DNA of 59,816 bases from Methanobacteriota archaeon (GCA_043806635.1 JAZDGT010000013.1:1-59816), one strand, 5' to 3'. Numbered from the stretch's first letter, positions 5,701 to 55,989 are shown. Translations and numbers: made by a program. Notes: generated by a model from the sequence alone, not told the origin.

Positions 5701-6074
5701 AGAATAATATCAACACTGCTCACTTCTTTCCTAGAAGGTATCAGGATATTTGCCATATATACAGGTAAAAGGGGATCGCCAGGGTTACCTAGACAAGGGG
5801 CATTTGGGAGTTCAATACGGGTATATTTGATATCACCAATTAGCACTGTCCTCAGTGTTGGTAAAGTAAACGTATATTTGATTATCATCTGTTGGTCATT
5901 AGGAACCCCTCTAGAAAATTCTGTATTAGAACATGATGATTTTGAGGATGTTTCTATAGTAGATAAAAATTGTTCGCTATGTATCCCATGGGCAACGAAA
6001 TTGGGGAGACATAAGATGGTTATTAAAAGAATACAGACTGTTTCTACTTTAATTCTTAATCCCCTTATTATCAT
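2781..6074 (-). CDS. Secreted gingipain-like peptidase C25 with propeptide, PKD domain and C-terminal CASH/NosD-like beta-helix
   Basis: Signal peptide; C25 propeptide (PGDPLLP); YLLLGGD, SDFYYSCLDG, VYVGR; catalytic INHLGHSG and SQGC; LNYFGDP; PKD WWWDFGDG; N-I-x-x-N repeats. Confidence 0.9.
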   Translation of the reverse strand: MIIRGLRIKVETVCILLITILCLPNFVAHGIHSEQFLSTIETSSKSSCSNTEFSRGVPNDQQMIIKYTFTLPTLRTVLIGDIKYTRIELPNAPCLGNPGDPLLPVYMANILIPSRKEVSSVDIILGDKVTIRIEKKIEPADTLVPCSQIDVATFPTPNPTIYTSAAPFPEKLFDQIGTQCFRGYRILSLSLYPIKYTPLTNILECYSEMTIVVRTHIKENTHLLYRGLEVDDSEVKEKIDNPEVIQTYISNEPAQRIVKKYDLLIITTDELKGGFFQLATVHNRRGISTIIKTLGADIPLGNTVNQTCENIRNFTREMYTTWGIEYLLLGGDIDLVPAPTLYFGYDYNNHVYGPSDFYYSCLDGPYNSNHNNRWGEATDGENGTDVDLRAEVYVGRACVGNRTEVGHFVNKTLKYLQMKNFCTINIDVYNNYLKKIVMAGEYLRPGQFGDTYLEQLINRTDNTVGIPADEYDIERLYDHSWPGFDPNDPWDTGWPKDEIINEINNGTHIINHLGHSGPNKNLKLDIGFSTTDVDRLVNDEPCFIYSQGCAAGAFDRDANTNPLIEDSIMEYFTVKREHGAFAGLWNTRDSYSGISTAFARWFWDGVIDKNITVLSKANQYSKEQNLPRIQGQYGQDWRWQCYQLNYFGDPTLSLQLALHAKALAPSEAVLNEPVSFTGHASGGYPPYKDWWWDFGDGNISKGQQANHTYRRVGNYTVNLTVHDSIGNVDTDTILVMIHRAVVWVDDNNTAGPWDGSQQFPFQRIQDGVDAVCTGGTVNVVNGTYYEHIWINKTLHLVGEEKNTTIIDSISWTNHSIRLRADRVTIRGLTIQHANAGIWLTASNCTIRDTIITDNKFGIYCTMRLTNITIHSNMILNNTWEGITLMVLYYSTVSRNVIIGNWRGVFVCGGHHNTISDNLIKDNNSLGILLDTTNNNTIIRNCIINRSYGIVSGRSYRNNISENLITGNTGDGIYLYSSSHHNMIQGNTVTNNLRNGIFLKTDSSNNTIVENTITNNTQCGIDIETTSDNLIYHNNFINDFNVRANTGRHNLWDNGYPCGGNYWSDWPCTGNPNDGSQPYIINEYNIDHHPFQNESGWN

Positions 6075-6671: not shown

Positions 6672-7673
6672 TGCTTTGTGTAATTATCTTTTAAAGACAT
6701 AGTCCAATGCATCCAACAGGGATGTAGGATGCAAAGGACTAGTCAAAAGAAGGAAACGTGGGAGAGGCATAAAGAGGTTAGTATCGACTGGAAACACTAC
6801 GATGAAAGCAGACTCAGCGAATGTAAGAGGATTTTAGATCTGACTACGGTGTTTCATGAACTGGATAAACCAGTTCAGCGGAGAGAATTTCAACTCTCCC
6901 GTCTCACCGTTTTGCTCCTGTTTAAAATCCTATTCGGCCTTTCATATCGTAGTATAGCAAATGCAACAAATGATTTGAAAATCTACCATGCGCTTGGGAT
7001 GAAACGAGCACCATGTTACAAGACCATCCAGAACACTATGGAATATCTTGATACATGGTTTCTCTCCCAGATCAATCGACTCTTCCTTCCACAGCGAGTC
7101 GCGCTGGGTGGTGTCGATTCCAGCGGGCTGAAAACCCACCAAAAAGGAGCATGGATTCAGATACGCTTCCAGAAATATCAGAAAAAACGGGATTTCAAGA
7201 AAACTCATATCTTTGTCGACCTGGTTTCGAAGAAAATCATCTATTGTTTAGTCACCAAAGGAACTGCATCTGACCATAAACAGCTGAAAAAAATACTCAA
7301 GGAATGTGACTGGATACGGGTCGACATTATCCTCGGTGACAAAGGGTACGATACCCGGGAATGCTTCAACGAAATTACCAAACAAGGTTCCACACCTGGA
7401 ATAAAAGTACGAAAAAACGCATCGAGAAAAGCCCGCGGTTGCCCCAGCAGACGGAAAGCAGTAATCGCCCAACAAGAGGATAACGATGGTTGGAAAAAGA
7501 AGGTTCAAGCGACCATGCGCTGTGTTGTTGAAGCAATATTTTCTGGGACGAAACGACGATTTGGCGAATACCTGTTCAGCCTCAAAGCACGATTTCGACG
7601 GGTCGAAGTATGGTTGCGTACTCTCCTGTGGAATGTTCTGATTTACCCGAGGTGAGAATTATTACACAAAGCA
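6672..7673 (+). mobile_element. IS5-family (IS903-group-like) insertion sequence, 1002 bp
   Basis: TIR TGCTTTGTGTAAT (6672-6684) and ATTACACAAAGCA (7661-7673); 9-bp TSD CCAAAAGAA at 6663-6671 and 7674-7682; ends resemble IS903 GGCTTTG. Confidence 0.92.
6729..7655 (+). CDS. IS5-family DDE transposase
   Basis: GVDSSGL, ILGDKGYD and RCVVEAIFSGTKRRFG carry the DDE triad; ORF fills the IS. Confidence 0.92.
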   Translation: MQRTSQKKETWERHKEVSIDWKHYDESRLSECKRILDLTTVFHELDKPVQRREFQLSRLTVLLLFKILFGLSYRSIANATNDLKIYHALGMKRAPCYKTIQNTMEYLDTWFLSQINRLFLPQRVALGGVDSSGLKTHQKGAWIQIRFQKYQKKRDFKKTHIFVDLVSKKIIYCLVTKGTASDHKQLKKILKECDWIRVDIILGDKGYDTRECFNEITKQGSTPGIKVRKNASRKARGCPSRRKAVIAQQEDNDGWKKKVQATMRCVVEAIFSGTKRRFGEYLFSLKARFRRVEVWLRTLLWNVLIYPR

Positions 7674-24068: not shown

Positions 24069-25382
24069 TTACACTATTATTTTTTGATATTCACCTAACG
24101 CCTGGTTCATCACCTGAATAAACATTTCCAGATCAGACGTATTTTGGAACACATTTAATGCCTGTTTCTGATATTGTACCGCATTCTCATAATACGTTTT
24201 GTTTACACCACTCAGATTCATCCCCAGATAGTGTTGATACGAATGAAACACGTTACTTGTAATCCATGATGCATTTTCCCCAAGAGCCAGAGATGTAACC
24301 AGAGATCCTTCATCAAACATCTGCGACTTACTCCCACGATCACAATCAACGTACACCGGCTCCACAAATGGTGTAGTAATCCACAGCCACCGCTCCTCCC
24401 CCTTCATAAACCGGAAAATATAATCAGTTTTAGTATCCCATTCGTCACCCGGGTAACAAACACGTTCAATCACTTGATGACTCGTCGCATACGGCGTCTC
24501 CCCCTTCGTTGAATCCAGTAGTACCCACCCGTACCCAGGAACATAGTACTCCACCATATAGTGCATCTGGGTCCAAAATCCTTGGTCATTATGCGCGAGT
24601 AAAACCCGTGCGGGGATATGTTGTGACCGGAACAACGCACACGCGAGATGAGACCGACCCACATTATCACCATTAATAAGTAGCGTGGTCAACGCATCTT
24701 GGGAAAAAAATATTTTACTATTCAATTGTACCACGAACAGTCCGTACCGATGATGTTTAATGAAATATGCGACCCGCTCCGCAAACCTGATCATGTTCGG
24801 GCTTATACCCCGAAGCTGCTCAGCCTTATGCTGAAGCAATGGATTATATATTTGAACCACAGGTGACCGTTGCAGCCACACCCTGGTCTCAATGGGCAGA
24901 CTTAAAACTCTTGGAAACCGGACAAACCGGGGGAGATCCGTAAACTCATGATCGTCAACTAGCACCCAGACACTGAAATGAATCAGCACCTCCTCACCAG
25001 TTACTAACGACCCTAATCTGAACACCACCACCTTATTCACCCCAGGGGTCTCATTCTGGATCCTATAATTAATGAGTGGTGCGGTGCTATCATTATATAT
25101 TTCTAAATACAAGGGAACCTGATAGGCGTACTCAGGCGGGAAGACGAACCGGACCTCACATGTGTCCACCGAAGCGGAGGCAGTCAGAACTAGGTAATGT
25201 TCTACTCGGAGCAGATGTACCTCAACCTCATCCTCTGCAAGTGGAGACAAGAATTGGGTGTCCATCGTCTCAGCGCTCACGATAACGGGGAGGAGGAGTA
25301 AGAGTACGCACAGTATTCCTATGATTGTTTTCTGCGGTATCATCGGTCTATGTACTCTTTTTTGAGTAGTCTTCTGTATCAT
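24069..25382 (-). CDS. Secreted transglutaminase-like domain protein with Cys-to-Asn at the catalytic position
   Basis: GDNVGRSHLACALFRSQHIPARV, HYMVEYYVPGYGWVLLDST; signal peptide; start 25382 or 25343. Confidence 0.82.
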   Translation of the reverse strand: MIQKTTQKRVHRPMIPQKTIIGILCVLLLLLPVIVSAETMDTQFLSPLAEDEVEVHLLRVEHYLVLTASASVDTCEVRFVFPPEYAYQVPLYLEIYNDSTAPLINYRIQNETPGVNKVVVFRLGSLVTGEEVLIHFSVWVLVDDHEFTDLPRFVRFPRVLSLPIETRVWLQRSPVVQIYNPLLQHKAEQLRGISPNMIRFAERVAYFIKHHRYGLFVVQLNSKIFFSQDALTTLLINGDNVGRSHLACALFRSQHIPARVLLAHNDQGFWTQMHYMVEYYVPGYGWVLLDSTKGETPYATSHQVIERVCYPGDEWDTKTDYIFRFMKGEERWLWITTPFVEPVYVDCDRGSKSQMFDEGSLVTSLALGENASWITSNVFHSYQHYLGMNLSGVNKTYYENAVQYQKQALNVFQNTSDLEMFIQVMNQALGEYQKIIV

Positions 25383-25448
25383 TATCCTCTGTACAAAGAG
25401 TGGTATTCCTTTGTATATATAGCTTTTGACTATCCTGTGTTTTTGTGT

Positions 25449-25514
25449 GTTACCCCCCACCATATAATGTAAAAAAATGTACATTGAAGTACATTTATTA
25501 GCAACATTTAAATA
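25449..25514 (+). repeat. Copy C of the TGTACA-phased element, abutting a TATA box
   Basis: gttacccccc...TGTAAA/TGTACA/AGTACA at 25468, 25478, 25488, then tagcaacaTTTAAATA. Confidence 0.65.
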
Positions 25515-25546
25515 GGGGACCCTCCATAATAAAAAAATGTGACCAC

Positions 25547-25861
25547 ATGAAAAAAACACTCACAACCCTCTTCTTCATACTCCTCCTCACACTCATCATC
25601 CCCACACACACCATACCTCCAACAAAAGCAGACAACACAAACCGAATCATCCCCATGATCATCATCGGAACCATAGAAAACAAAACCTACTATAACGGCG
25701 TCATGTCATTCAACGCAATAACCATATACAGATTCACACCACTAACCACCCCAGAATTCAGAGGCTTCTACCAAGGAACCATGCGACTCAAAGGCCTCAT
25801 CGGACTTGCAACAAACCACTTCATCTGCGGCTACTGCCAATACCAACCCGAAGGATGGTAA
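25547..25861 (+). CDS. Small secreted hypothetical protein
   Basis: MKKTLTTLFFILLLTL signal peptide; similar motif layout to 6222-6620. Confidence 0.7.
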   Translation: MKKTLTTLFFILLLTLIIPTHTIPPTKADNTNRIIPMIIIGTIENKTYYNGVMSFNAITIYRFTPLTTPEFRGFYQGTMRLKGLIGLATNHFICGYCQYQPEGW

Positions 25862-44030: not shown

Positions 44031-45143
44031 ATGAAAATCGCGATGATAGGCTGGGAATACCCACCGTTCAAAGTGGGTGGCTTAGGAACTCATTGTTACG
44101 GGCTTACACACGGTCTTGCCGATAAAGGTATCCAGATTGATTTTTATATGCCGAAAATCCGGAACAAAATCAAAAGCGATAAGAAAAACATCAACATCAT
44201 CGAAGTCGGAGAAACCGAGATTTTCCCCTACGACCGACCCGATGATAAATCCCTCGGCGGAAAATTTTTTGAGAAAGTGTACAAGTACAACGAACTCCTC
44301 GTTTCAAAAGTGAAAGGAAAATATAATGCGGTTCACTGTCATGATTGGCTGACGATGAAAGCAGGAATCCAGATCAAGGAAAAACTCGGGATCCCCCTCA
44401 TCGTCACCGTGCATTCCACAGAATACGACCGTGCCGGATGGCTGTACCCGAATCAATGGTTTATTGATATCGAACGCGAAGGCATGGAGAAAGCAGATAG
44501 AGTTATTGCAGTCAGTAACTTCACGAAACAAGTCATCGTAGAAAAATACGGGATCAACCCTGATAAAATCAGTGTTGTCCACAACGCGGTGTACCCCATT
44601 GGTGGTGGAGAAAAAAAGAATCTGGTGCTATTCCTCGGCCGACTCACCCTCCAGAAAGGTCCAGAGTTTTTTTTGAAAGCAGCGAAAAAAGTGTTAGAAC
44701 ATGAAGACACCCATTTTGTGATCGCAGGGACCGGCGATATGCTCCCCCGTCTCATCAACCAAGCGGTGGACATGGGGATTTCAAGCAAAGTGATTTTCAC
44801 GGGGAAACTCACTGATGAGGAAGTCCGCCATATCTACAAAATATCCAGCGTGTACGTGATGCCTTCTGTGAGTGAACCGTTTGGGATCACCGCGCTTGAG
44901 GCATGCTCCGCAGGCACCCCAACGATCGTGTCAAAGAGCTCCGGCGTTTCCGAGGTGTTCCATAACTGTTTCAAAGTGGATTTCTGGGATACCGATGAAA
45001 TGGCGAATAAGATCATTTCGATCATCCGCTATCAGCCGCTGCGGGAAACCATGATGGATTATTCTAAACAAGAGATAAATTTATTTACCTGGGATCGTGT
45101 TGCAGATAGGACTTTAGACGTGTACAACGAAGTCGCGAGGTAA
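44031..45143 (+). CDS. GT4 glycosyltransferase (glycogen synthase-like)
   Basis: WEYPPFKVGGLG, HCHDWLT, HSTEYDR, EPFGITALEA. Confidence 0.88.
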   Translation: MKIAMIGWEYPPFKVGGLGTHCYGLTHGLADKGIQIDFYMPKIRNKIKSDKKNINIIEVGETEIFPYDRPDDKSLGGKFFEKVYKYNELLVSKVKGKYNAVHCHDWLTMKAGIQIKEKLGIPLIVTVHSTEYDRAGWLYPNQWFIDIEREGMEKADRVIAVSNFTKQVIVEKYGINPDKISVVHNAVYPIGGGEKKNLVLFLGRLTLQKGPEFFLKAAKKVLEHEDTHFVIAGTGDMLPRLINQAVDMGISSKVIFTGKLTDEEVRHIYKISSVYVMPSVSEPFGITALEACSAGTPTIVSKSSGVSEVFHNCFKVDFWDTDEMANKIISIIRYQPLRETMMDYSKQEINLFTWDRVADRTLDVYNEVAR

Positions 45144-45149
45144 TTACGA

Positions 45150-46340
45150 ATGCCGTCTATCTGCATATATTTTGAAGTTCATCAGCCCGTGAGGTTAAAC
45201 CATTTTTCTGTGTTTGATATCGGGAATAATGTGGCTGACCCGTACTCCTCCTATTTTGATCATAAGAAAAACCGTGCTATTTTTGAGAAAGTCGCGGCAA
45301 AATGCTATTTGCCCACAAACAAACTTTTACTTGATTTGATCAATGAGTATGACGGGAAATTCCGCATCTCATTCAGCCTCACAGGGACGTTTGTGGAATA
45401 TTGTGAATTGTTTATGCCGTGGGTGCTGGAGAGCTTCCAGGAGTTATTCGCCACGGGCGCAGTGGATTTCATTGAGGAGACATACTTCCATTCCCTCTCA
45501 GGGTTGTATGACGACCTTGATGAGTTCCAAGACCAGGTGAAGATGCACCGGAATATGATTAAACGGATTTTTAACTACAAACCGAAAGTGTTCAGAAACA
45601 CGGAAGCGATCTATGATAACCGAGTCGCAAAAAAAGTCGAAGACATGGGGTATAAAGGAATCATCACAGAAGGTGCAGATAAAATCCTTGACTGGCGATC
45701 ACCAAATTATCTGTACAGACCAGCAAACGCTAATCTCAGTGTCCTCCTACGGAATTATATGTTGAGTGATGATGTCGGTTTCCGGTTCTCAGCCCGAGGC
45801 TGGCAGGGATGGCCGCTCACCTCAGATAAATACGCGCAATGGATGGCGAAAACCGATGGTGACCTGATTAACTTGTTCATGGATTATGAAACCTTCGGGG
45901 AGCATCAGTGGACGGAGACCGGGATATTCGAATTCCTCCGACATCTCCCTGGTGAGGTCCTCAAATACGGAAACCTTGATTTCGTGACAGTCAGCGAAGC
46001 AATCCATCGGTATCACCCGGTGGGAACGATTGACGTCCCCTGGGCGATCTCCTGGGCAGACGCGGATCGCGATGTCTCCACATGGCTGGGGAACAACATG
46101 CAGATCGCGTGTTTTAATGAACTCAAAGACATCGGTCGGAAACTACGAGAGAAAAAAGACGAGGATCTCCTCTACACATGGCGATTACTGCAAACCTCGG
46201 ATCATCTGTATTATATTTCCACGAAAGGGTTTGAGGACGGCGCAGTCCACGCGTACTTCAGCCCGTACGAAGTCCCGTACGATGGCTTTATTAACTACAT
46301 GAATATCTTACAGGATTTAAAACAACGAGCATCACAATAA
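45150..46340 (+). CDS. GH57 alpha-amylase
   Basis: FEVHQP, ETYFHSL, FRNTE nucleophile, FMDYETFGEH, LQTSDH. Confidence 0.92.
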   Translation: MPSICIYFEVHQPVRLNHFSVFDIGNNVADPYSSYFDHKKNRAIFEKVAAKCYLPTNKLLLDLINEYDGKFRISFSLTGTFVEYCELFMPWVLESFQELFATGAVDFIEETYFHSLSGLYDDLDEFQDQVKMHRNMIKRIFNYKPKVFRNTEAIYDNRVAKKVEDMGYKGIITEGADKILDWRSPNYLYRPANANLSVLLRNYMLSDDVGFRFSARGWQGWPLTSDKYAQWMAKTDGDLINLFMDYETFGEHQWTETGIFEFLRHLPGEVLKYGNLDFVTVSEAIHRYHPVGTIDVPWAISWADADRDVSTWLGNNMQIACFNELKDIGRKLREKKDEDLLYTWRLLQTSDHLYYISTKGFEDGAVHAYFSPYEVPYDGFINYMNILQDLKQRASQ

Positions 46341-46377
46341 CATAAATAATTGAAGTGTTGAGGAGAGTTTACTTACT

Positions 46378-47619
46378 ATGAAAATCGTCCATTTTTCCTG
46401 GGAGTTTCCCCCAGTAATCTACGGCGGACTAGGAACATTTGTCACAGAAATATCTCAGAAACAACAATCATTCGGCAACGAGGTCGCCGTCTTTTCATTG
46501 AATCCTGAGAACCGTCTTGCCACCTCAGACATCTATAACGGTGTTGAAGTCTACCGACCAAAAACCCTTGATCTCACCTCCGCATTGTTTCTCTGTGCAG
46601 ACCATGATCTCCGCTCATGGGGATCTCATTTCAAGTTTTTTGCTGATGTCTGGAGCTACAACGTCATGTCCGCATCACAACTCGTGAACTTACTCGTGAA
46701 AAAAAACGGGAGGAAATTTAATGTCATCGATGCCCACGATTGGCTCGGAATCATCGGTGGTATGACCGCAAAAAAAGAGTTGGATCTCCCGTTAATGTTT
46801 CATGTGCATTCCACTGAGGTCGGACGATCTATTGGACGCGGATCTCATACGATTAAAGATATTGAGTTTGAAGGTGGGCAAGTTGCTGATTGCGTGATCA
46901 CCGTTTCGTATGCGATGGCGGATGAGTTACAAAAACTTGGGTTCCCACCCAACAAGATCGAGGTGTGTTGGAACGGGGTTGACCCTGTGAAATACGACCC
47001 GAAGGCAGTCTCCTCCGCGCAGCGGAATGAACTCCGACACCGATACGGCGTCCAGGATCATGAAACCCTCGTGTTTTTCATCGGTCGCCTAGTCACCGTG
47101 AAAGGAGTCGATAACCTGATGAAGGCCTTCCCTAGCGTGGTGAAGGAATTCCCGAATGCGAAACTGTTGATTCTCGGGATCGGTGATCTCGAAGGCAGCC
47201 TCCGTTATCAGGCTGAACAACTCGGGTTACGCGATAAAGTTATTTTCAGGTCAGAGTTTGTGAGTGAACCCGAACGTATCCTGCATTATGCTGCAGCAGA
47301 TGTCGTCGTCCTCCCCTCTCTCTACGAACCATTCGGTATCGTCTGCACCGAAGCAATGTCCATGGCGAAACCAGTCGTCGTCGGTGCACGAGGAACAAAC
47401 GGGATGCGTGAACAAATCATCCCTACTGGGGATGAACAATGCGGAGTCCACATCAACCCGTTCACCCCTGAGGATATCGCCTGGGGAATCAAGGCTGTGT
47501 TACAATCAAAAGAAAAAAGTCAACTGATGGGGCAAAAAGCCCGCGAGCGAGTACTGCAGGAGTTCAGCTGGGATGTCGTCACGAAACGTACCTTAGAAAT
47601 CTATGATAATTTTATTTGA
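46378..47619 (+). CDS. GT4 glycosyltransferase (second glycogen synthase-like copy)
   Basis: WEFPPVIYGGLG, AHDWL, HVHSTE, YEPFGIVCTEA. Confidence 0.88.
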   Translation: MKIVHFSWEFPPVIYGGLGTFVTEISQKQQSFGNEVAVFSLNPENRLATSDIYNGVEVYRPKTLDLTSALFLCADHDLRSWGSHFKFFADVWSYNVMSASQLVNLLVKKNGRKFNVIDAHDWLGIIGGMTAKKELDLPLMFHVHSTEVGRSIGRGSHTIKDIEFEGGQVADCVITVSYAMADELQKLGFPPNKIEVCWNGVDPVKYDPKAVSSAQRNELRHRYGVQDHETLVFFIGRLVTVKGVDNLMKAFPSVVKEFPNAKLLILGIGDLEGSLRYQAEQLGLRDKVIFRSEFVSEPERILHYAAADVVVLPSLYEPFGIVCTEAMSMAKPVVVGARGTNGMREQIIPTGDEQCGVHINPFTPEDIAWGIKAVLQSKEKSQLMGQKARERVLQEFSWDVVTKRTLEIYDNFI

Positions 47620-47628
47620 GAAAGATTT

Positions 47629-49482
47629 ATGAGAGAATGGATTGTCACCAACGGATTAGGCAGCTATGCTTCATTAACCTACAATAACGAGAACACCAGA
47701 AAATTCCATGGTCTCCTAGTTGCCAGTCTTGACCCACCAGCAAAACGATGGATGTTCATCTCCAACGTCTACGAGAAAATACAGATCGGGAAGAAAACGT
47801 ATGACCTCAGGAATCTTCGAGGACAATTCACCTATCAGTATCTCCCAACGTTTCACTACGATGTTGACGGAGTCCACATAAAAAAAACCGTGTTCATGGA
47901 AAACGGGAAGAACACCACGGTTATGAAATATGAGATAACAACGGATACTCCAGTATCCTTTTTTTATCATCCGGTGGTGAACTCTCGTCATTTCTACGAT
48001 GTCACCTCTCAACGCCACCTCAAAATCCAGGAAGATGTACTCCCCAACGGGATACAATTGAAACCAAATAACGTGCAAAACACCATCAAAATATTCCTGG
48101 AAGACGCCCAGTATGAGCCATCATTTTATTGGGAGGAGATGTACTATCAAAAAGACCATGAACGACGTGACTCCTGGATAGACAACAACATCCATCTTGG
48201 CGATTTCCATAAAATCATCAAAACATCATCAGACTACTACCTCGTCTGCACCCTTGAAGATACACTTGATCATCCTGCTGCGCACCTCTACGAGCAGGAA
48301 CTCCAACGAAAAAAGAACCTTCTCGACCATGTGAACCTCCCAAAACAATTCGAGAAACTCGTACTATCAACGGATAACTTCATCGTGAAGAAGAAAGGAA
48401 GAAAATCGATCGTCGCCGGGTATCATTGGTTCAGCGACTGGGGAAGAGACACCCTCATCGCACTCCCCGGAATCTGCCTAGTCACCAAACGATTCGCTGA
48501 TGCGAAACAAATCCTCCTCAGCTTCGGTGAACACACCAAACACGGACTCATCCCGAACACGTTCATGGATCGCGACTCCCAACCCCTCTACAACACCGTC
48601 GACGCCGCATTATGGTACGTGGACCGTGCATACCAGTATCTGAAATACACGAACGACCAAGAATTCCTCAAAGAAATCTGGGATGTCCTCCAATCCATCA
48701 TTAACGGGTACATGAAAGGCACCGATTATGGTATCCACATGGACCACGATTACCTCATAAGCCACGATGAAGGACTCACCTGGATGGATGTAAAACTCGG
48801 AGACTATTACCCGACCCCCCGCTCAAAGAAAGCCGTCGAAATCCAAGCACTCTGGTATAACGCCTTAGAAATCATGAGCGCATGCACCGCCGTACTAGGA
48901 GAAGAAGATGTCTATGGGGAACTCGCAAACCACGTGAAAAAAAATTTTACCAGACAATACACCCACCGCTACGATGTCATTGATACGAAAGACCTCGCCT
49001 GCCGGCCGAATCAGATATTCCTCGTCTCCCTCGACTTCTCAATGATTCCTCAATCAGTTCAAGAAAACATCGTCACGGACGTACAAGAACATCTCCTCAC
49101 CCCATTCGGACTTCGCACCCTCTCACCCGAAGACTCCCGCTATAAAGGAACCTATATCGGCGACTACAACAAGGATCTCGCTTATCATAATGGCACAGTC
49201 TGGCCATGGCTCATCGGGCCATTCATCAGAGCATTTATCAAAGTCAAAAACCGTGAACCACAATGGAGAAAATACGCATACCAGAACTTTTTATACCCCA
49301 TGCTCAACGTGTTTGGTGACACCTGGGACGGATCCATCTACGAGATATTCGATGGAGACCCCCCATTCCTCCCACAAGGCTGCATCACCCAAGCGTGGAG
49401 CGTCTCAGAACTACTCCGATCCTGGGTGGAAGACATCGAAGGGATAACCCCCGAATACGAACAACTCTTACTCGCTACATGA
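47629..49482 (+). CDS. Glycogen debranching enzyme (amylo-alpha-1,6-glucosidase, GH133)
   Basis: REWIVTNGLGSY, AGYHWFSDWGRDT, LTWMD, YHNGTVWPW, QAWSVSE. Confidence 0.93.
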   Translation: MREWIVTNGLGSYASLTYNNENTRKFHGLLVASLDPPAKRWMFISNVYEKIQIGKKTYDLRNLRGQFTYQYLPTFHYDVDGVHIKKTVFMENGKNTTVMKYEITTDTPVSFFYHPVVNSRHFYDVTSQRHLKIQEDVLPNGIQLKPNNVQNTIKIFLEDAQYEPSFYWEEMYYQKDHERRDSWIDNNIHLGDFHKIIKTSSDYYLVCTLEDTLDHPAAHLYEQELQRKKNLLDHVNLPKQFEKLVLSTDNFIVKKKGRKSIVAGYHWFSDWGRDTLIALPGICLVTKRFADAKQILLSFGEHTKHGLIPNTFMDRDSQPLYNTVDAALWYVDRAYQYLKYTNDQEFLKEIWDVLQSIINGYMKGTDYGIHMDHDYLISHDEGLTWMDVKLGDYYPTPRSKKAVEIQALWYNALEIMSACTAVLGEEDVYGELANHVKKNFTRQYTHRYDVIDTKDLACRPNQIFLVSLDFSMIPQSVQENIVTDVQEHLLTPFGLRTLSPEDSRYKGTYIGDYNKDLAYHNGTVWPWLIGPFIRAFIKVKNREPQWRKYAYQNFLYPMLNVFGDTWDGSIYEIFDGDPPFLPQGCITQAWSVSELLRSWVEDIEGITPEYEQLLLAT

Positions 49483-51211
49483 AATACGCGTTCAGCACGT
49501 ACTGCTGAATCATCCGGCTCGTGTTAAAAAACGACGCATTAATCGCGATACAGCTCCGCATCGTCCGAATCCAGTTTTCCCGGTCATGATAAAACTTCGG
49601 CATAATCAAATGCTCAAGTTTCTCATATAAATCATTCCGATCACAGTCATCATCAGACTCTCGCTCATTGGATTTCCTCGACCCGATCGCCCACCCAGTA
49701 ATATTTTCAATACGACCCTCAATCCACCAGCCATCCAGCGTGCTGAACTGCGGCACACCATTATGCGCAGCCTTCATCCCCGACGTCCCCGACGCTTCTT
49801 GCGGCCGTCGCGGCGTATTCAACCACAGGTCCACACCAGCAGTCATCATCTTCGCAATCGCCATATCATAATTATGAATATAGACGATCTTCACTTTCCC
49901 TTGAATACTTTTCATGATCGAAAAAATCTTCTTAATCGTATCCTTCCCGGTGCCATCCTTCGGATGCGCCTTCCCCGCGTAAATGATTTGGATCTGCCCC
50001 GCCTTCTCCGCAAGAGCCATCAGACGCTGCGGATCAGAGATCAACAGATCAGGCCGTTTATATGCAGTCTGCCTCCGAGCAAACCCGATCGTGAACGGCT
50101 CATACGTCATCCCTACATTATACCGACTGTTAATGAAATCAATAAGCTTTTTTTTCGCTTCCATATGAGCGTCCCAGATCTCCTGTTTATCCATACCAAA
50201 CGCGGCACGTAAAGAATACGAGTCAGTACGCCACCCCGAGATGTATTTATCAAACAACCGCTGGAACGGTTCACACACCCACGTGGCGGAATGAACACCA
50301 TTCGTGATCGAATCAATAGAATACCCGGGGAACATCATCCGCGACACCTCACCATGCTTCTTCGCAACCCCGTTCACATAATGACTGAAAAAAAGCGCAA
50401 GACGCGTCATATTCAACTTATTCTCATACGTGACATCCTGCAACAAAGAATCAGGCATCATATCACCCAGCATCGATTTCGCAAGACCCATGTCGAACTG
50501 ATCATGCCCTGATGCTACGGGGGTATGCGTCGTGAACACGCATTGTTCTCGTACTTTTTCAATATCCCTAAATCTGCGGAACAACTCCAACGTCCCTAAC
50601 GCGGCATGCCCCTCATTCATATGATACTTATCAATAGATGAATACCCAAGTGCATGCAACGCACGTACACCACCAACACCAAGAATAATTTCTTGTGAGA
50701 GACGATACTTGTTATCACCACCATACAAATACTTCGTTATCTCTCGATCAACAGCAGCGTTCTCCTCAAGGTTCGTATCAAGGAAAAACACGGGAATCAT
50801 ATAGTTGTTAATCCCTTTCACGAGATAATACCAAATCTGAATATTCACGGTTCGATTCTCGATCTTCACCTGAGTCTTACTCGGTAGTAACGTCAGAAAA
50901 TCGCTGATGTTAAAATTAAACGGGAGCTCAATCTGGTTTCCTTCCGCATCAAGTTTTTGGTAAAAATATCCTTTCTCAGAGAGTAACGTCATCCCAATGA
51001 TAGGCACGTTCAGATCTGCGCAGGATTTTAACGTATCACCAGCAAGAATACCTAACCCGCCACTGTAGGTTGGGATGTGTTCATCGATGCCGATCTCCAT
51101 CGAAAAATACGCTATTTTTGGTTTCCCCGTCGATTTTAAACCATTATTTCCTAGATCTGCCTTCAATTGAATCGTAGACGTTTCCTCCATGCTCTCCATC
51201 CACCTTCTCAT
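49475..51211 (-). CDS. glgP: Alpha-glucan (glycogen/maltodextrin) phosphorylase, GT35
   Basis: AYFSMEIG, YSGGLGILAGD, NEGH, FARR..YKR, EASGTSGMKA. Confidence 0.93.
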   Translation of the reverse strand: MRRWMESMEETSTIQLKADLGNNGLKSTGKPKIAYFSMEIGIDEHIPTYSGGLGILAGDTLKSCADLNVPIIGMTLLSEKGYFYQKLDAEGNQIELPFNFNISDFLTLLPSKTQVKIENRTVNIQIWYYLVKGINNYMIPVFFLDTNLEENAAVDREITKYLYGGDNKYRLSQEIILGVGGVRALHALGYSSIDKYHMNEGHAALGTLELFRRFRDIEKVREQCVFTTHTPVASGHDQFDMGLAKSMLGDMMPDSLLQDVTYENKLNMTRLALFFSHYVNGVAKKHGEVSRMMFPGYSIDSITNGVHSATWVCEPFQRLFDKYISGWRTDSYSLRAAFGMDKQEIWDAHMEAKKKLIDFINSRYNVGMTYEPFTIGFARRQTAYKRPDLLISDPQRLMALAEKAGQIQIIYAGKAHPKDGTGKDTIKKIFSIMKSIQGKVKIVYIHNYDMAIAKMMTAGVDLWLNTPRRPQEASGTSGMKAAHNGVPQFSTLDGWWIEGRIENITGWAIGSRKSNERESDDDCDRNDLYEKLEHLIMPKFYHDRENWIRTMRSCIAINASFFNTSRMIQQYVLNAYFM

Positions 51212-51325: not shown

Positions 51326-51634
51326 TCAGGTGTACATGATGCCGTCGTATTCTTTCGGTTCATATTTTTTCTGCATCCGACGATGTTTCACTGGTTTTTT
51401 TTGTTGTTTTCTGCCGACAAAACAGAAATCATGTCGCATGAGTCTAATATATATTGTGTCTGGTAATTGGTCTAACCGGACGATGCCTTTTGTCTGTAGT
51501 TTTTTAAGCTCCCGTAGGAGAAGCGGTTTAGCTACCCGTAACTCCTTCTGTAAATCGTTCAGGGTTACCGGATACTTTTTTTGTAAGATTTTTATGATCT
51601 GCCCTTCTAATGATCCTGCTGTAATCTCGATCAT
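51326..51634 (-). CDS. Small winged-helix protein
   Basis: PVTLNDLQKELRV..LLRELKKLQTKGIVRL HTH-wing; basic tail. Confidence 0.7.
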   Translation of the reverse strand: MIEITAGSLEGQIIKILQKKYPVTLNDLQKELRVAKPLLLRELKKLQTKGIVRLDQLPDTIYIRLMRHDFCFVGRKQQKKPVKHRRMQKKYEPKEYDGIMYT

Positions 51635-51691
51635 ATACATCAACTGTTAACGCAGAAGCATCTGCTCTCTGCTCCTATTTTTCTCAGGGTT

Positions 51692-52786
51692 TTATTGATA
51701 TGACCGTTGATTATCTTTTGTTATAACGAGTTGTTTAGATTCTCTCTCAGAATATAAAGATAATTCAGTGAATGCATCAGCGGTGATGGTGATCGAAGAG
51801 CTGTACACCCATGAAATACCAGATAATGAGAGATTCAAGGACTCATTACTTCCTTCATCGACAAAAAGCCTCAGGTGAAACGCGTTTTCAACCCCGAAGT
51901 TCTGATGCACCTCAGCCTGTAAGGTTGCAACACCTGCGCATTCAACGGGTACCCACCCGTTGTTCCCCATACCGCCGCCGACGAACACCTCGACCCACGC
52001 ATGAGGACCTGCGACTGCATCACCTTGGTTTGATTCTATGAGATAACCCCGGATGAACCGTGCAGGTATACCCAGTGAGCGACAGAGGGAAATATACAGG
52101 AATGAGAGATCATCACAGTCCCCGGTCCTGAGTATAAAGGTTTCTGAGGCAGGTTGAACCACGGACTCACTCTCATGAAGACGGTACTCAGTGTTTTGTT
52201 TTAACCAGACAAATATCGCCTGCGCGAGTACAAACGCGTTCTTACTCTCTGATTGGTTATAAATGCGACGTGCAGTATCCTGGATATCTGGTTGATACGG
52301 GTCTATATATCGTGTTTCGTCGATTGCTTGTAATCCGCAATACTGCATCACCAGGGTAGGATGTTGAGAGGGAATTTGCTCGAGGGTTAACGCGTTTTTT
52401 CCAGTCAGGTCTGAGACAAGGTAACTTCGTGCGACCACCGAGGTCGTCACCCCTAACTCGTACGTGTTCGCAGAGGAACCGTTGATGTCCCAGACAATTC
52501 GTTTATTTCCACCTACCATGATTTCTTGATACTCGCCGGGGTACAGGATGGTGACTGGGGTTACCTCACCCTGAAGAACCTGTGGTGTATCACACGCAAA
52601 ATGAATCGAATACGAACCGGTACCTGCTACGGAAAGGTTATACCCGTATCGGATCGTGTATTGAATTGCTGTTGGATAGGATTCATACCGGGTTGAATCA
52701 TCAAACACGATATCCATGCATCCCGTGGTTAGGAGAGTAATAATGACGACACCGATCAACAGAAACGACACAATTTCTTTTTGCAT
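51692..52786 (-). CDS. Lipoprotein-like transglutaminase/cysteine-protease domain protein
   Basis: Lipobox-like LLTTGC; GDCDD..LCRSLGIPARFIRG; HAWVEVF; WVPVE. Confidence 0.85.
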   Translation of the reverse strand: MQKEIVSFLLIGVVIITLLTTGCMDIVFDDSTRYESYPTAIQYTIRYGYNLSVAGTGSYSIHFACDTPQVLQGEVTPVTILYPGEYQEIMVGGNKRIVWDINGSSANTYELGVTTSVVARSYLVSDLTGKNALTLEQIPSQHPTLVMQYCGLQAIDETRYIDPYQPDIQDTARRIYNQSESKNAFVLAQAIFVWLKQNTEYRLHESESVVQPASETFILRTGDCDDLSFLYISLCRSLGIPARFIRGYLIESNQGDAVAGPHAWVEVFVGGGMGNNGWVPVECAGVATLQAEVHQNFGVENAFHLRLFVDEGSNESLNLSLSGISWVYSSSITITADAFTELSLYSERESKQLVITKDNQRSYQ

Positions 52787-52797
52787 ACGCCCCTAGG

Positions 52798-54666
52798 TTA
52801 TCTCCTAAAAATTTTTATTTTTTTACTATGCGTATTCCGGTACGCGCATCCGTTACTCATTGGGCATTGAGGGCACTCTGGGTTTGACTCATGACAAAAA
52901 TCTTCTCCAAGACGTGCTAACGACTCTAGATACTGATACACGTTCTCCTTCATTTTTTCTGCTTCTTTTGTTAAGAACTGTATTGTTTTTTCTGGGTCAT
53001 CATAGGATACCCAGCCGAGTCGTTTCGCAACCCTATTCACCTGGGTGGCTTTCGTTGTCACAGTGTTCTTCGATGGTGACGTGCTTGATTGCGGTTTTGT
53101 GATTGATGATGGCGGTGCTTCACTGGGGAGGTCACCCCGTTCCTGGGGGTTAGGCATCTTTGGTATCTTCGAAGGACTATAATCATCCCCGTCTTTGAAT
53201 ACGGTCACTGATTTCCCGCCATGGCTGGTTTCTCGGGTACGTATCTCCGCCATAACCGGTATCTGCAACGATGCACCAGAGATTAATGCAACACCAATAG
53301 GGAGCCGCTGGATCTCCTCATATGTCTGATGCGTCAGCCCTTCAACCGACTGAATAATTGCTTTCAGATCATTTGGGTTCGTGACCTTCAAAATAATATT
53401 CGTGTTACATTGAGAGATGATGTTTTTGTCAATCTTCGCAGGACGTTGACTCACCACACAGAGACCCATACCGAACTTCCGCCCCTCAGATGCCACTGTC
53501 CGAAGAACATTGGAGGACACCGCACGACCTAGCCCGTGCTCAGGACAATAATTATGTGCCTCCTCAACAACCAGGAGGAATGGTGGGATTTTCCCTGCCT
53601 TCCGGGTTTCAAACAACTCCTTGGTCAACCGTGCCACGACGACATCTTGCACATCAGGCGGTACACCCTTCATATTAATGAGTGAGCATAATCCTTTCTT
53701 GACGACATCCTGCGCAGGAGTCCCCTGTTCAGAGAAAATACCGATTGAATCAAGTGATTCTAATGAGGCGATCACGTTCCATCGGGCGTTACTTTTACTC
53801 CGGTTCACGGTATCGATGATATCACGCATGGTGTACGTTTGTTTGAATTCTTTGATTTCTTTTATCGCCTGGTATAAGACGCCGATTTGCGGGCCGGATA
53901 GTTTCGCAGAGAGGAGATCAATGATTTCGCGTGCTTCAAGGTTCATCCCGTTCAATGTGAGATGTTTCGCATTGGGTTTCCCGCCGATGGGTGAATACTC
54001 TTGGATTTGACTTGCGTAATCTCTTGGTTTTACGTTGAATCTTGTCATGTTTTTTTGGTCTTTCTTCTCTTTGTTGGGTGATTCCAGAGACGAGTATTCT
54101 CCGTGGGTGTCGATGATGACGAGAGGGATTTTCTTTTTCAGGAGTTCTTCGACGAGGACGCCGCAAGCGTAGCTTTTTCCTCCACCTGTCTTGGCAAGGA
54201 TGCAGATGTGTTTCTGCACCATCGCATCGATGTTGAGGTAGACGGGGAGGGTGTGTCCTTTGAGGAGTCCGATGTAGGCACCGCTTTCTTTATCAGAGTG
54301 TAACCCAAGGATATGTCGAATGAAAGTTTCTTCTGCGTTGGTGATCCGACTCCCTGATTCGAAGGGTGATCGTGGGACTTGGAGTTGTCCTTTGTCATCT
54401 CGGTAACCTATGACTCCTGCGTATGCGGAGAGGTCACTGTGGACGCTGGGGAGATCACCAGTGCTTTTGAACGTTTTAGCATCATCAAAAGAGAGGTCAG
54501 AGAAGCGTTTGATATCGAGGACTTGAGCAAGAATATAGCCTTCTTTGTGGGGGGCAGCAACGTAATCGAATTTCCGTAGATTGCGATCATCTACCGTAAA
54601 GTTGAACTCGTTTGATCCGACATCACCGTAGATAATACCTACGCCGTTATTCTTCTGTTGTGGCAT
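52798..54666 (-). CDS. HerA/FtsK-family ATPase (HAS barrel + DUF87) with C-terminal endonuclease III-type Fe-S domain
   Basis: HICILAKTGGGKS, IIDTHGEY, VVEEAH, EGRKFG, SQRP; C-terminal C-x6-C-x2-C-x5-C. Confidence 0.88.
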   Translation of the reverse strand: MPQQKNNGVGIIYGDVGSNEFNFTVDDRNLRKFDYVAAPHKEGYILAQVLDIKRFSDLSFDDAKTFKSTGDLPSVHSDLSAYAGVIGYRDDKGQLQVPRSPFESGSRITNAEETFIRHILGLHSDKESGAYIGLLKGHTLPVYLNIDAMVQKHICILAKTGGGKSYACGVLVEELLKKKIPLVIIDTHGEYSSLESPNKEKKDQKNMTRFNVKPRDYASQIQEYSPIGGKPNAKHLTLNGMNLEAREIIDLLSAKLSGPQIGVLYQAIKEIKEFKQTYTMRDIIDTVNRSKSNARWNVIASLESLDSIGIFSEQGTPAQDVVKKGLCSLINMKGVPPDVQDVVVARLTKELFETRKAGKIPPFLLVVEEAHNYCPEHGLGRAVSSNVLRTVASEGRKFGMGLCVVSQRPAKIDKNIISQCNTNIILKVTNPNDLKAIIQSVEGLTHQTYEEIQRLPIGVALISGASLQIPVMAEIRTRETSHGGKSVTVFKDGDDYSPSKIPKMPNPQERGDLPSEAPPSSITKPQSSTSPSKNTVTTKATQVNRVAKRLGWVSYDDPEKTIQFLTKEAEKMKENVYQYLESLARLGEDFCHESNPECPQCPMSNGCAYRNTHSKKIKIFRR

Positions 54667-54705: not shown

Positions 54706-55515
54706 TTATAGTTTTTGTATTTTTTTAGCGGTTTCTTCAGGCAAACCCGCGAATGAGGTGAGGGCTTGGATCTCCATGAAATGGAGTTCTCCGGGGACGA
54801 CGAGGGTGTGGAGTGGTGGCCCGAACTGCTTCTTTATTAAACGGGAGATGGTATCTGCTGCGAGTATCATATCTGCTGAGCCTGCTCGTGCGACAACGCA
54901 GACGATGCGCTGTTCGTTCAGTATGTGTTCTTTTTTTTCTTGTTCCATTCTGAGTAAGAGGTTGAGTCCTTCATGGGCGGTCATGTACTGGTTCTTTTCT
55001 GCTTGGATATCGAGGAGGACGAGGGTGTGTAATCCCATCTGTGTGTTGTCTTTTATTACGGTATATGGGCTGGTTGGAAAATAGTTTTTTTCAGGGAAGG
55101 GGAGCGTGGTGGTCCTCCCAAATTTATAATTTTGTAAGCCTAACAGGCCGGGGACTGCGGTCATAATACTACTATTATGAATGATGTTCGTGACGATTCC
55201 ACGTTCCCTGGCGCGTAATCGTAAATCTATGTGGGTGGTCGCCATCATCGGGTCTCCTCCGATGAGGAGTGCAACGGTTTTTTTCTCTGCCTCGTCGAGA
55301 AGAGCTGTTGCGTTTTCGATATCCTGTCGTGATAGAATCGTGATTTTTTTCTTAATTTTTTTTTCTAACGCGGGGATGGCGGTGTTGGTGAGTCGTGAAG
55401 TGTAGAACTCCGCGTAAATAGTATCACAGTGTTTGATTTCTTCAAGTCCTTTGAGGGTGATGTCGTTTTCGTCGTGGAGTCCTAGGCCGATGAAGAGGAG
55501 TCGTCCTTTTGTCAT
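54706..55515 (-). CDS. dph5: Diphthine synthase
   Basis: LFIGLGL, YAEFYTS, GDPMMATTH, GLQNYKFGRT, GLHTLVLLDI, GPPLHTLVVPG. Confidence 0.95.
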   Translation of the reverse strand: MTKGRLLFIGLGLHDENDITLKGLEEIKHCDTIYAEFYTSRLTNTAIPALEKKIKKKITILSRQDIENATALLDEAEKKTVALLIGGDPMMATTHIDLRLRARERGIVTNIIHNSSIMTAVPGLLGLQNYKFGRTTTLPFPEKNYFPTSPYTVIKDNTQMGLHTLVLLDIQAEKNQYMTAHEGLNLLLRMEQEKKEHILNEQRIVCVVARAGSADMILAADTISRLIKKQFGPPLHTLVVPGELHFMEIQALTSFAGLPEETAKKIQKL

Positions 55516-55803
55516 GGGGTGTTCACGAGGTATCATGATTTCGTGGGTCTAGAAAAATGTTTGTTTTCTATGTGAATTATTTCGAAATCTTTAAAATCAA
55601 TAAAACGATATCAGTATTGGGGAGACAACTACCGGCTCTTTTTTAACCATTTTTCTGTCTATTTATTAATCTCTTTTTATATTGGGTCTCTATATGTCTA
55701 AGATATGGTGTTATATACTCCTGAGCGGCAATGTTTCGCAAGGAGGAAAATAAGGAAAGATTTAAATTCTCTGATATCTATTCCGTATCTGGAGGTAAAA
55801 ATT

Positions 55804-55989
55804 ATGGCATATAAACACGAAGGATGGACTTTGTACACCCGGGATGTGAAACTGAAAGGCGGAAGAAACCAAACAATCTATTTCTTTAGCAAGAGATCAC
55901 CGAAGAGTGGAACCCCCTGCGAATTACCGAATGGGTACGCTGTTGGTGTGAACAAGCGAACTGGCCTTCCTTATCTGAAAAAGAGGTAA
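55804..55989 (+). CDS. 61-aa basic beta-rich protein of unknown function
   Basis: GGAGGT SD, TTTAAA TATA, T-rich terminator; MAYKHEGWTLYTRDVKLKGGRNQTIYFF..ELPNGY..NKRTGLPYLKKR. Confidence 0.8.
   Translation: MAYKHEGWTLYTRDVKLKGGRNQTIYFFSKRSPKSGTPCELPNGYAVGVNKRTGLPYLKKR

Follow-up and report, generated by a model that had tools for sequence, protein, structure and literature searches.

A HerA-family ATPase of Thermoplasmatota archaea with a C-terminal module akin to the iron-sulfur domain of endonuclease III and MutY

The closest described relatives of the gene considered here are, for most of its length, the HerA ATPases, represented by the archaeal HerA of HerA-NurA (Sulfolobus HerA, PDB entry 4d2i) and by the HerA proteins of anti-phage systems such as Sir2-HerA and DUF4297-HerA, and, for its C-terminal end, the iron-sulfur (Fe-S) DNA glycosylases of the EndoIII (Nth), MutY, MIG and ROS1 type. 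The role of the Fe-S cluster of Nth and MutY is still debated, and to our knowledge its cluster loop has been studied only inside glycosylases. In a 59,816-nt stretch of DNA from a Methanobacteriota archaeon (the window; its own genome, G000, is 85.7% complete), a minus-strand gene at 52798-54666 joins both families in one chain of 622 amino acids (aa). It belongs to a sub-clade of HerA ATPases that adds to the motor, in order, a low-complexity linker, a module of ~75 residues related to the C-terminal end of EndoIII and MutY, and a short basic peptide with a hydrophobic pair. The domain fusion is real, and it is a domain-architecture variant of a known ATPase family, not a new system. It is apparently undescribed, no HerA-FeS fusion having been found in the literature searched, which consisted mostly of abstracts and included passages of PMC11090510, PMC2643942, PMC6393860 and PMC12680538. 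The gene, its regions and its immediate neighbors are as follows.

52798-54666, minus strand: HerA-family ATPase with FeS tail (open reading frame (ORF) and translation, 622 aa plus stop)
54415-54642, minus strand: N-terminal HAS-barrel region, aa 9-84 (Pfam HAS-barrel, 23.4 bits, under the 25.2-bit cut-off)
53200-54276, minus strand: RecA-like ATPase core with helical insertion, aa 131-489 (DUF87 and HerA_C)
53071-53199, minus strand: Pro/Ser/Thr-rich linker, aa 490-532 (gapped, unconserved alignment columns 501-560)
52846-53070, minus strand: EndoIII/MutY-like C-terminal module, predicted to bind [4Fe-4S], aa 533-607 (profile, fold model)
52801-52845, minus strand: basic C-terminal peptide, aa 608-622, AYRNTHSKKIKIFRR (charge count, alignment)
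51692-52786, minus strand: predicted exported transglutaminase-like lipoprotein, 364 aa (Transglut_core, E 3.2e-20)
51326-51643, minus strand: small protein resembling winged helix-turn-helix (wHTH) proteins, 105 aa, with a TTG or nearby ATG start (HTH_24, E 4.3e-4)
54706-55536, minus strand: diphthine-synthase-like TP_methylase, 276 aa (TP_methylase, E 2.5e-19)

The motor shares with archaeal HerA the order of its regions and intact Walker A, Walker B, arginine-finger and sensor motifs. Pfam matches DUF87 at residues 131-350 (expectation value (E) 1.3e-36, 127 bits against a cut-off of 23.2) and HerA_C at residues 361-463 (E 6e-5), while phmmer aligns the protein end to end with Sulfolobus HerA (residues 10-477 onto chain positions 4-462 of 4d2i, E 1.6e-33). 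The NCBIfam model HerA_Thermprot aligns over residues 10-485 (1e-40), far under its own cut-off; this alignment and that to 4d2i both start at residue 10 and span the HAS-barrel region. A preliminary description of the window, made from the sequence alone, had read a complete HerA motor followed by a Pro/Ser/Thr linker, and the translation bears this out: Walker A is AKTGGGKS (residues 158-165), Walker B is LLVVEEAH (364-371), and the arginine finger and sensor lie in SEGRKFG (EGRK, 394-397) and VSQRP (SQRP, 406-409), all of these motor motifs being invariant in 16/16 aligned homologues. The core ends in RTRETSHGG at about residue 484 and the Pro/Ser/Thr-rich stretch follows at about residues 496-541. 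The linker varies in length and sequence, and the whole post-core extension of relatives measures about 230-280 aa. On these alignments and motifs the 622-aa protein is firmly placed as a HerA-type ATPase with intact motifs. Its clade is distinct and vertically inherited.

The protein differs from archaeal HerA in its ~130-aa C-terminal extension, in its distance from HerA proper and in its lack of a NurA companion. Scores against the NCBIfam equivalogs for HerA proper, NF040819 and NF040937, are 150.5 and 139.6 bits and do not reach the cut-offs of 970 and 800 bits. Within the clade, identity is 41-54% across Thermoplasmatota, falling to 27-29% against the NurA-adjacent HerA of the same phylum, which lies directly beside NurA in four of the six top-scoring NurA loci (family f37). 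NurA (PF09376) gives no match in the 85.7%-complete G000 and none in 39 sampled genomes of the order (0/35 in family f1, 0/4 in family f2), compared with 76/301 genomes in a phylum-wide sample; the control for this search was positive in 6-7 named genomes, and a very divergent NurA could have escaped it. Where NurA and a member of this HerA clade coexist (e.g. G239, G250, G181, G140, G254), they lie on different contigs or far apart. In agreement with the preliminary description, which had seen no nurA, mre11 or rad50 in the window, a Pfam scan of the 59 window ORFs finds none of these families; the Rad50 zinc hook also gives no match in G000, with a model so insensitive that it missed a Haloferax control. 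Since NurA is not detectable in the lineage, DNA ends must be processed there by machinery unlike that of textbook archaea.

After the linker the tail runs ATQVNRVAKRLG...CHESNPECPQCPMSNGC from Q542, which begins at base 53043, to C607, which ends at 52846, and through the end of the protein it reads TKATQVNRVAKRLGW…CHESNPECPQCPMSNGC…KKIKIFRR. The preliminary description had located this stretch at ~52845-53043, likened it to the C-terminal Fe-S domain of EndoIII and MutY, and noted that the HhH motif is absent and that the catalytic DTH reads ATQ; each of these points is upheld by the comparisons below. The module consists of an RVAKRLGW helix, two further helices and a cysteine loop, in which C591-x6-C598-x2-C601-x5-C607 has the exact C-x6-C-x2-C-x5-C spacing of the cluster-ligand motif. 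For the single sequence, the NCBIfam mutY model aligns at E 8.3e-6 (residues 543-612 onto model positions 139-212; 25.5 bits against a cut-off of 286.5), the nth model at E 9.8e-4 (18.8 bits against 211.7), and phmmer matches EndoIII entries 1p59 and 1orn at E about 0.002, together giving modest support for homology with EndoIII and MutY; the Pfam EndIII_4Fe-2S model, with its 17 positions, is insignificant against the tail (E 0.95). An alignment of 33 tails (A2: one from the window, 22 from loci of the same order and 10 from loci in other families) gives a stronger signal. As a profile against all PDB sequences it matches 44 distinct sequences at E up to 1, of which the 38 best-ranked are EndoIII, MutY/MUTYH, NTHL1, ROS1 and MIG-type glycosylases, the top match being EndoIII 9nzc (E 9.4e-9, profile 8-72 onto chain 139-201 of 209).

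The likeness covers the last ~65-75 residues of the glycosylases, namely the H/N-R-V-x-x-R-L-G helix, the two helices, the Cys motif and the Pro before the second Cys. In A2 the invariant columns are R13, V14, R17 and G19 of the RV..R.G helix, C59, P64, C66, C69 and C75. The glycosylase-derived piece starts where the catalytic Asp would stand and stops where the Fe-S cluster loop ends. In contrast to EndoIII and MutY, the tail lacks the start of the six-helix barrel, the HhH motif, the GPD loop and the catalytic Lys, and the catalytic Asp position is Ala, ATQ facing the glycosylase DTH in the profile alignment. The first ~138 glycosylase residues (the HhH-GPD part) have no counterpart in the tail, matches beginning at ~136-139, and neither Pfam nor NCBIfam finds PF00730 or HhH in the 622-aa protein. 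The module also differs from these glycosylases in forming the end of an ATPase and not a stand-alone enzyme.

Structure prediction agrees with the sequence profile. AlphaFold2 run on A2 yields a confident four-helix model of the tail (mean predicted local distance difference test score (pLDDT) 90, predicted template modelling score 0.80), and Foldseek with this model against the PDB returns Fe-S HhH-GPD glycosylases (EndoIII, MutY, MIG, NTHL1, ROS1) at all of ranks 1-48, with probabilities up to 1.00; the best is 4uob (E 0.013, template modelling score 0.58 on the query), and 2abk superposes with a root-mean-square deviation (RMSD) of 2.4 Å over 73 columns. VIA-align against 48,161 representative chains likewise places Fe-S glycosylases in the top nine positions (Z 5.7-7.9, the first unrelated chain at Z 4.9), with E. 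coli Nth (2abk) at Z 7.6, RMSD 3.0 and 78 aligned residues over chain positions 117-209. The tail is thus predicted to adopt the Nth C-terminal fold. As a lead, ESM Atlas places the tail with clusters of 75-91-aa proteins, some carrying EndIII_4Fe-2S or HhH-GPD (score 0.92), which agrees with the homology and brings no further architecture to light. Beyond the cysteine loop, the basic end of the 33 tails spans 15-30 residues with a median net charge of +6 and a conserved hydrophobic pair, the aligned endings reading GLFKK, FFKR or RRLWRR.

The FeS-tailed HerA is a near-universal, single-copy core gene of its Thermoplasmatota order. A match at E ≤ 1e-20 is present in 114/118 genomes of the order and in 43/43 of the high-quality ones, G097 among the 114 matching at 7e-22 only, the level of a 28%-identical DUF87 paralogue, and the gene is 63-83% identical across 45 genera. 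G000 holds one full copy plus that paralogue, a second, short DUF87 ATPase of 427 aa on contig C29 (L002:1486-2769), after which comes a gene for a 210-aa protein that weakly matches DUF7311 (L002:2753-3385); frames of 425-441 aa like the short ATPase occur in many genomes of the order. A word-indexed search returned 120 full-length homologues (603-638 aa, 70-83% identical, 98-100% query coverage), and 120/120 carry C-x6-C-x2-C-x5-C with exact spacing within the final 120 residues. None of these tails (0/120) has a precomputed Pfam assignment, so database annotation misses the module. With a pattern permitting x6 or x7 between the first two cysteines, the motif is present in 49/49 loci of the order (45 by the first pattern and four once the Walker A variant GAGKS was allowed) and in 79/79 named public loci whose match reaches residue 600; the named records and the G-numbered genomes cover mostly the same species. 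Among the public relatives are records titled Thermoplasmatales archaeon SG8-52-3 and SM1-50, a lineage that we take to be Marine Benthic Group D, and the fusion marks a core gene of this large uncultured sediment-archaeal lineage.

Outside the order the motor is widespread and the tail is restricted. In the phylum sample 178/301 genomes yield a match at E ≤ 1e-30; beyond the order, alignments end at residue about 483-541 (41-54% identity), and many of the frames extend to 600-880 aa. When 1.84 billion proteins are clustered at 50% identity, seven of the 150 best representatives have the Cys motif: P0050 (the query cluster), P0123 (773 aa, 56% identity), P0124 (715 aa), P0125 (717 aa) and three fragments. 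In the remaining representatives the chain either stops directly after the core or continues into a coiled-coil-like or ~210-aa globular extension that lacks a strong Pfam match. These tail-less or differently tailed clade members (P0126-P0151 and others, from Thermoplasmatota and other archaea) share the core and the linker after an R-x-T-x-H-G-G core end, and several share the basic-hydrophobic last peptide; the extension of P0149 has a weak wHTH match. In P0146, P0246, P0221, P0134 and P0130 the ends are longer and resemble G-F-L-K-K-I-F-G-G (…GGFLKKIFGG, …NLFRKIFGGG), and may be comparable to the amphipathic membrane-targeting ends of MinD-type ATPases. Of the loci fetched outside the order, 10/20 encode the FeS tail (families f5, f6 and f8 of the same class), with C-x7-C in two of the ten. 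A maximum-likelihood tree of 40 cores puts the 18 FeS-tailed rows on one side of a single branch, so that one change is needed, a score as low as which was reached in 0/500 shuffles; the branch has support 82/53 and appears in 79% of 200 bootstrap trees, and families f4 and f7 of the same class branch elsewhere and are without the tail. As judged from this tree, the tail was apparently acquired once.

A fusion artefact or a decaying Nth remnant was considered and rejected, the tail being intact and constrained in every orthologue examined. A search for shorter proteins made of the tail gave 26 hits, most of them on 1-5 kilobase (kb) contigs and resembling cut C-termini. P0282, P0287, P0289 (96 aa) and P0296 (98 aa) are public gene calls of the tail alone; the three 96-aa calls take an internal Met as their start (MVNRVAKRLGW), one of the three comes from a 205-kb contig, and P0287 and P0296 are labelled 'endonuclease III' by their source. 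Such calls may be split or stand-alone forms or artefacts of gene calling. At the other extreme of length, clade members of 1058-1339 aa (P0147, P0154, P0156, P0158, P0167, P0173, P0185, P0190, P0192-P0197, P0200, P0201, P0217 and P0219) match in two separate stretches, three in one case, which could reflect an insertion, for example an intein, within the ATPase core.

We consider it probable that the gene encodes a housekeeping, NurA-independent ring ATPase of the HerA clade of the FtsK-HerA superfamily, not a partner of NurA, with a tethered module derived from a glycosylase. By analogy with characterized relatives, the protein would form a hexamer and pump double-stranded DNA through its pore, and the four invariant cysteines would ligate a [4Fe-4S] cluster as in Nth and MutY. 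Because it has neither the HhH-GPD pocket nor the Lys and Asp, the module should be unable to excise bases and would serve as a tethered accessory, six per ring, most likely holding or sensing DNA, or sensing redox state, near the motor; the basic end would strengthen binding to an anionic surface, be it DNA or membrane. The neighboring transglutaminase, methylase and wHTH proteins would not be parts of the machine. Of the earlier proposal of a DNA motor with a non-catalytic Fe-S module, the fusion itself stands, and the DNA-binding or redox function is suggested by analogy. Here the cluster loop, together with its supporting helices, stands by itself on another DNA machine as a strongly conserved module, so that nature offers a clean construct for asking what the cluster contributes when no bases are excised. 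A more speculative extension, to which we give a small chance, is that in an order with no detectable NurA the HerA motor swapped its nuclease partner for six [4Fe-4S] modules that act as DNA-bound redox or damage sensors, cluster state or DNA contact recruiting or licensing the translocase at lesions or ends. If true, the Nth/MutY cluster loop would occur here in nature as a signalling module in its own right.

Several observations weigh against the main reading, that of a housekeeping motor with a tethered module. The HAS-barrel match (E 6.6e-5) falls just below its Pfam cut-off, and the full-length model built from the 16-row alignment is poor (mean pLDDT 56.7), with values of 24-40 at the N-terminus, so that the HAS barrel is assigned from sequence alignments; the pLDDT of 70-92 for residues 170-420 and of 21-33 for the linker are to be read within a model that is poor as a whole. 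Foldseek gives no match at E ≤ 1e-3 and the VIA-align Z-scores stay below 8, a range that can reflect a common or unspecific arrangement, hence the fold claim leans on the agreement of the sequence profile with the structure ranking. Support for a single origin of the tail is modest. The FeS module has a median net charge of 0 in the 33 tails, and being not basic it does not favor a simple DNA clamp. Lastly, some relatives have proteostasis genes as neighbors, namely PAC2 (L053 and L048), Hsp20 (L048) and a PAN-like AAA ATPase (L052), so that a protein substrate keeps some probability.

The neighboring genes vary in how closely they follow the motor. An 11-base gap (52787-52797) separates the HerA stop from the start of the transglutaminase gene, as the preliminary description had it, and a 48-base gap separates the latter from the wHTH start; upstream, the TP_methylase gene, putatively diphthine-synthase-like on our reading of its sequence, ends 39 bases before the HerA start on the same strand. 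With the transglutaminase-like cysteine protease superfamily (PF01841) the downstream neighbor shares the core domain (72.9 bits against a cut-off of 23) and the conserved Cys and His motifs, GDCDDL, HAW.E and GW..EC being invariant in 14 aligned sequences. It differs from that superfamily in its lipoprotein form, in a ~180-aa N-terminal region of no known family and in its third catalytic position, which in our alignment appears to be the Glu of GW..EC. Its hydrophobic, signal-like N-terminus ends in a G-C lipobox-like motif, invariant in the same 14 sequences, and on these features it reads as an exported protein, probably lipid-anchored.

The transglutaminase gene follows the motor in 29/29 close loci (1.5 kb flanks), in 19/20 loci across families f1, f2 and f3 (the miss is L068, and in L065 it lies ~900 bases off) and in 74/76 named loci with enough flank (+/-3 kb), sets that overlap in genomes; across the 13 loci measured the gap ranges from -35 to +41 bases, seven others having been dropped by a pattern filter and not for absence. 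A full-length orthologue, among 151 genomes of the class, is present in 63/67 of family f1, 4/4 of f2 and a single genome of the sister family f50 (G379) only, where it again follows an FeS-tailed motor, of the P0123 type; other families have domain-level matches only, in 530-740-aa frames elsewhere. Within ±4 kb of the motor it is found at 0/20 loci outside the order, all ten FeS-tailed genes among these (10/10) being without it. The methylase lies upstream of HerA in 18/20 and 75/77 loci and is thus equally syntenic, so that conserved order in the clade does not imply shared function. The genes beyond the transglutaminase vary by genus (rpS12-rpS7-EF2, a membrane protein, methyltransferases, Cdc48). 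The wHTH gene is present in 104/118 genomes of the order (45-60% identity) at other places: in ten genomes (G060, G024, G028, G046, G025, G085, G086, G043, G048 and G022) it shares a contig with the motor at a distance of 14-25 kb, and in five others, several of them single-contig, it lies hundreds of kb away; it was beside HerA in 0/80 named loci (+/-3 kb), 0/20 and 0/29 (1.5 kb flanks). The protein itself has weak family matches only, HTH_24 being the best. Its adjacency in G000 is a local rearrangement, and a rearrangement or deletion of 14-25 kb probably brought it beside the transglutaminase gene. Of the three checks that the preliminary description set for itself, the conservation of the cysteines in orthologues and the predicted Nth fold of the tail come out in its favor, and the synteny of the three genes does not. 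The idea that these form an operon or system linking the motor to an envelope enzyme therefore fails for the wHTH gene and holds for the transglutaminase only as clade-limited conserved gene order, common to an unrelated methylase; it does not look like a system.

In loci outside the order the neighbors are of another kind. DUF357 lies directly downstream of the HerA-like gene in 9/20 of them, often overlapping the HerA stop (L036:5941-6354, L037:2872-3864, L038:3237-3659, L039:3246-3542, L041:3225-3524, L043:3141-3440, L044:2944-3639, L045:3207-3506, L052:5428-5757), and is fused to a GNAT acetyltransferase domain in L037 and L044. According to passages of PMC6393860, DUF357 is a near-universal archaeal gene of unknown function (463/524 genomes). 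In G000 it lies on another contig (C25), and for its near-universality and this separation DUF357 was set aside as a functional partner. In five f5 loci a large serine recombinase (Resolvase plus Recombinase) stands ~0.8-1.2 kb beyond the HerA 3' end, past DUF357 where that gene is present (L036:7241-8092, L039:1217-2068, L041:1782-2654, L045:1776-2660, L050:1199-2026), a fixed position across genera that is odd for a mobile-element gene. Hef-type helicase/ERCC4 nuclease genes stand beside the FeS-tailed HerA in four f5 loci (L043:6208-8493, L045:6311-7066, L046:1149-3506, L050:5481-6440), and other relatives neighbor MCM (L039), PolD DP2 (L047) and SMC-ScpA (L052).

These contexts bear on what else the protein might do. 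The FeS module could be a regulatory switch and not a DNA-binding element, oxidation or loss of the cluster reporting oxygen, redox state or iron and gating the motor or its interaction with partners in these anaerobic sediment archaea. Its neutral charge, which would leave any DNA- or membrane-like affinity to the separate basic peptide, the loss of all catalytic and HhH DNA-binding elements of the glycosylase, and the restriction of invariance to the cluster ligands, the RV..R.G helix and the Pro before the second Cys all fit this proposal; the DNA enzymes that neighbor the relatives speak against it, as does the fact that the cluster loop of the parent glycosylase family is a structural DNA-contact element, and we grant it a real if minor chance. 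Alternatively, the motor, the exported transglutaminase and the wHTH protein could form a membrane-linked system for DNA uptake or export, or an envelope system, in which the C-terminal peptide anchors the motor. The persistent adjacency of motor and transglutaminase counted above, with its 11-base gap here and its recurrence in G379, and the resemblance of several relatives' C-terminal peptides to amphipathic membrane-targeting ends would suit such a system, but the wHTH gene is located elsewhere in every other genome examined, the methylase is just as syntenic, the signal sequence and invariant lipobox Cys place the transglutaminase outside the cytoplasm, the ten FeS-tailed motors fetched outside the order do without it, and neighbor scans found no membrane channel or pilus gene next to the pair, which together make this improbable.

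A motor that handles protein, as a proteostasis or secretion ATPase with the FeS tail as adaptor, would be consistent with the PAC2 gene directly upstream in L053 and nearby in L048 and with the Hsp20 and proteasome-ATPase-like genes already mentioned, and some members of the FtsK-HerA superfamily do move proteins. However, the nearest solved or curated relatives are DNA-translocating HerA proteins, the added module derives from a DNA enzyme, and Hef, MCM, PolD and SMC neighbors are at least as frequent as the proteostasis ones, so we regard this reading as very improbable. Least weight of all, close to none, is given to an anti-phage or other defence HerA system, a role that the preliminary description had entertained. 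The ATPase domain is homologous to that of the anti-phage HerA structures (8wiv, 8xau, 9c1m and 8j4u; E 1e-20 to 6e-25 over residues ~327-480), and both PADLOC HerA models (best E 3.7e-48) and NCBIfam anti-phage HerA models (1e-28 to 1e-31) match, which reflects family homology only. The NCBIfam scores lie far under the curated cut-offs (108.7 against 800 and 98.6 against 850 bits), PADLOC matches neither neighbor, the window ORFs include no adjacent Sir2, nuclease or other effector, and a single-copy, near-universal gene with the conservation given above and a housekeeping context is unlike a defence gene.

The window as a whole is ordinary chromosome: Pfam on its ORFs finds genes for translation, isoprenoid, glycogen and glycosylation functions, and the HerA gene sits between translation and glycogen genes. 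A promoter and terminator scan gave 6 and 6 sites against 8.5 and 4.9 expected, which is uninformative for an archaeon. The glycogen gene cluster (44031-51211) adjoins the wHTH gene and comprises two GT4/GT5 starch-synthase-like transferases, a GH57 enzyme, a debranching enzyme (GDE_N/GDE_C) and a phosphorylase. Elsewhere the minus strand encodes a further protein with a transglutaminase core, the second in the window (24069-25559, 496 aa, E 8.2e-10), and a gingipain-like C25 peptidase of 1097 aa that carries PKD and NosD/beta-helix domains (2781-6074), consistent with a lineage rich in exported protein-modifying enzymes. A DDE transposase gene (6729-7655, plus strand, E 8.4e-18) lies amid housekeeping genes. 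Finally, a 94-aa ORF with no Pfam match at 55705-55989 on the plus strand is 74% identical to a frame in the same relative place in G016, where it lies between the methylase and Rpp21 genes, and is probably a real small conserved gene.

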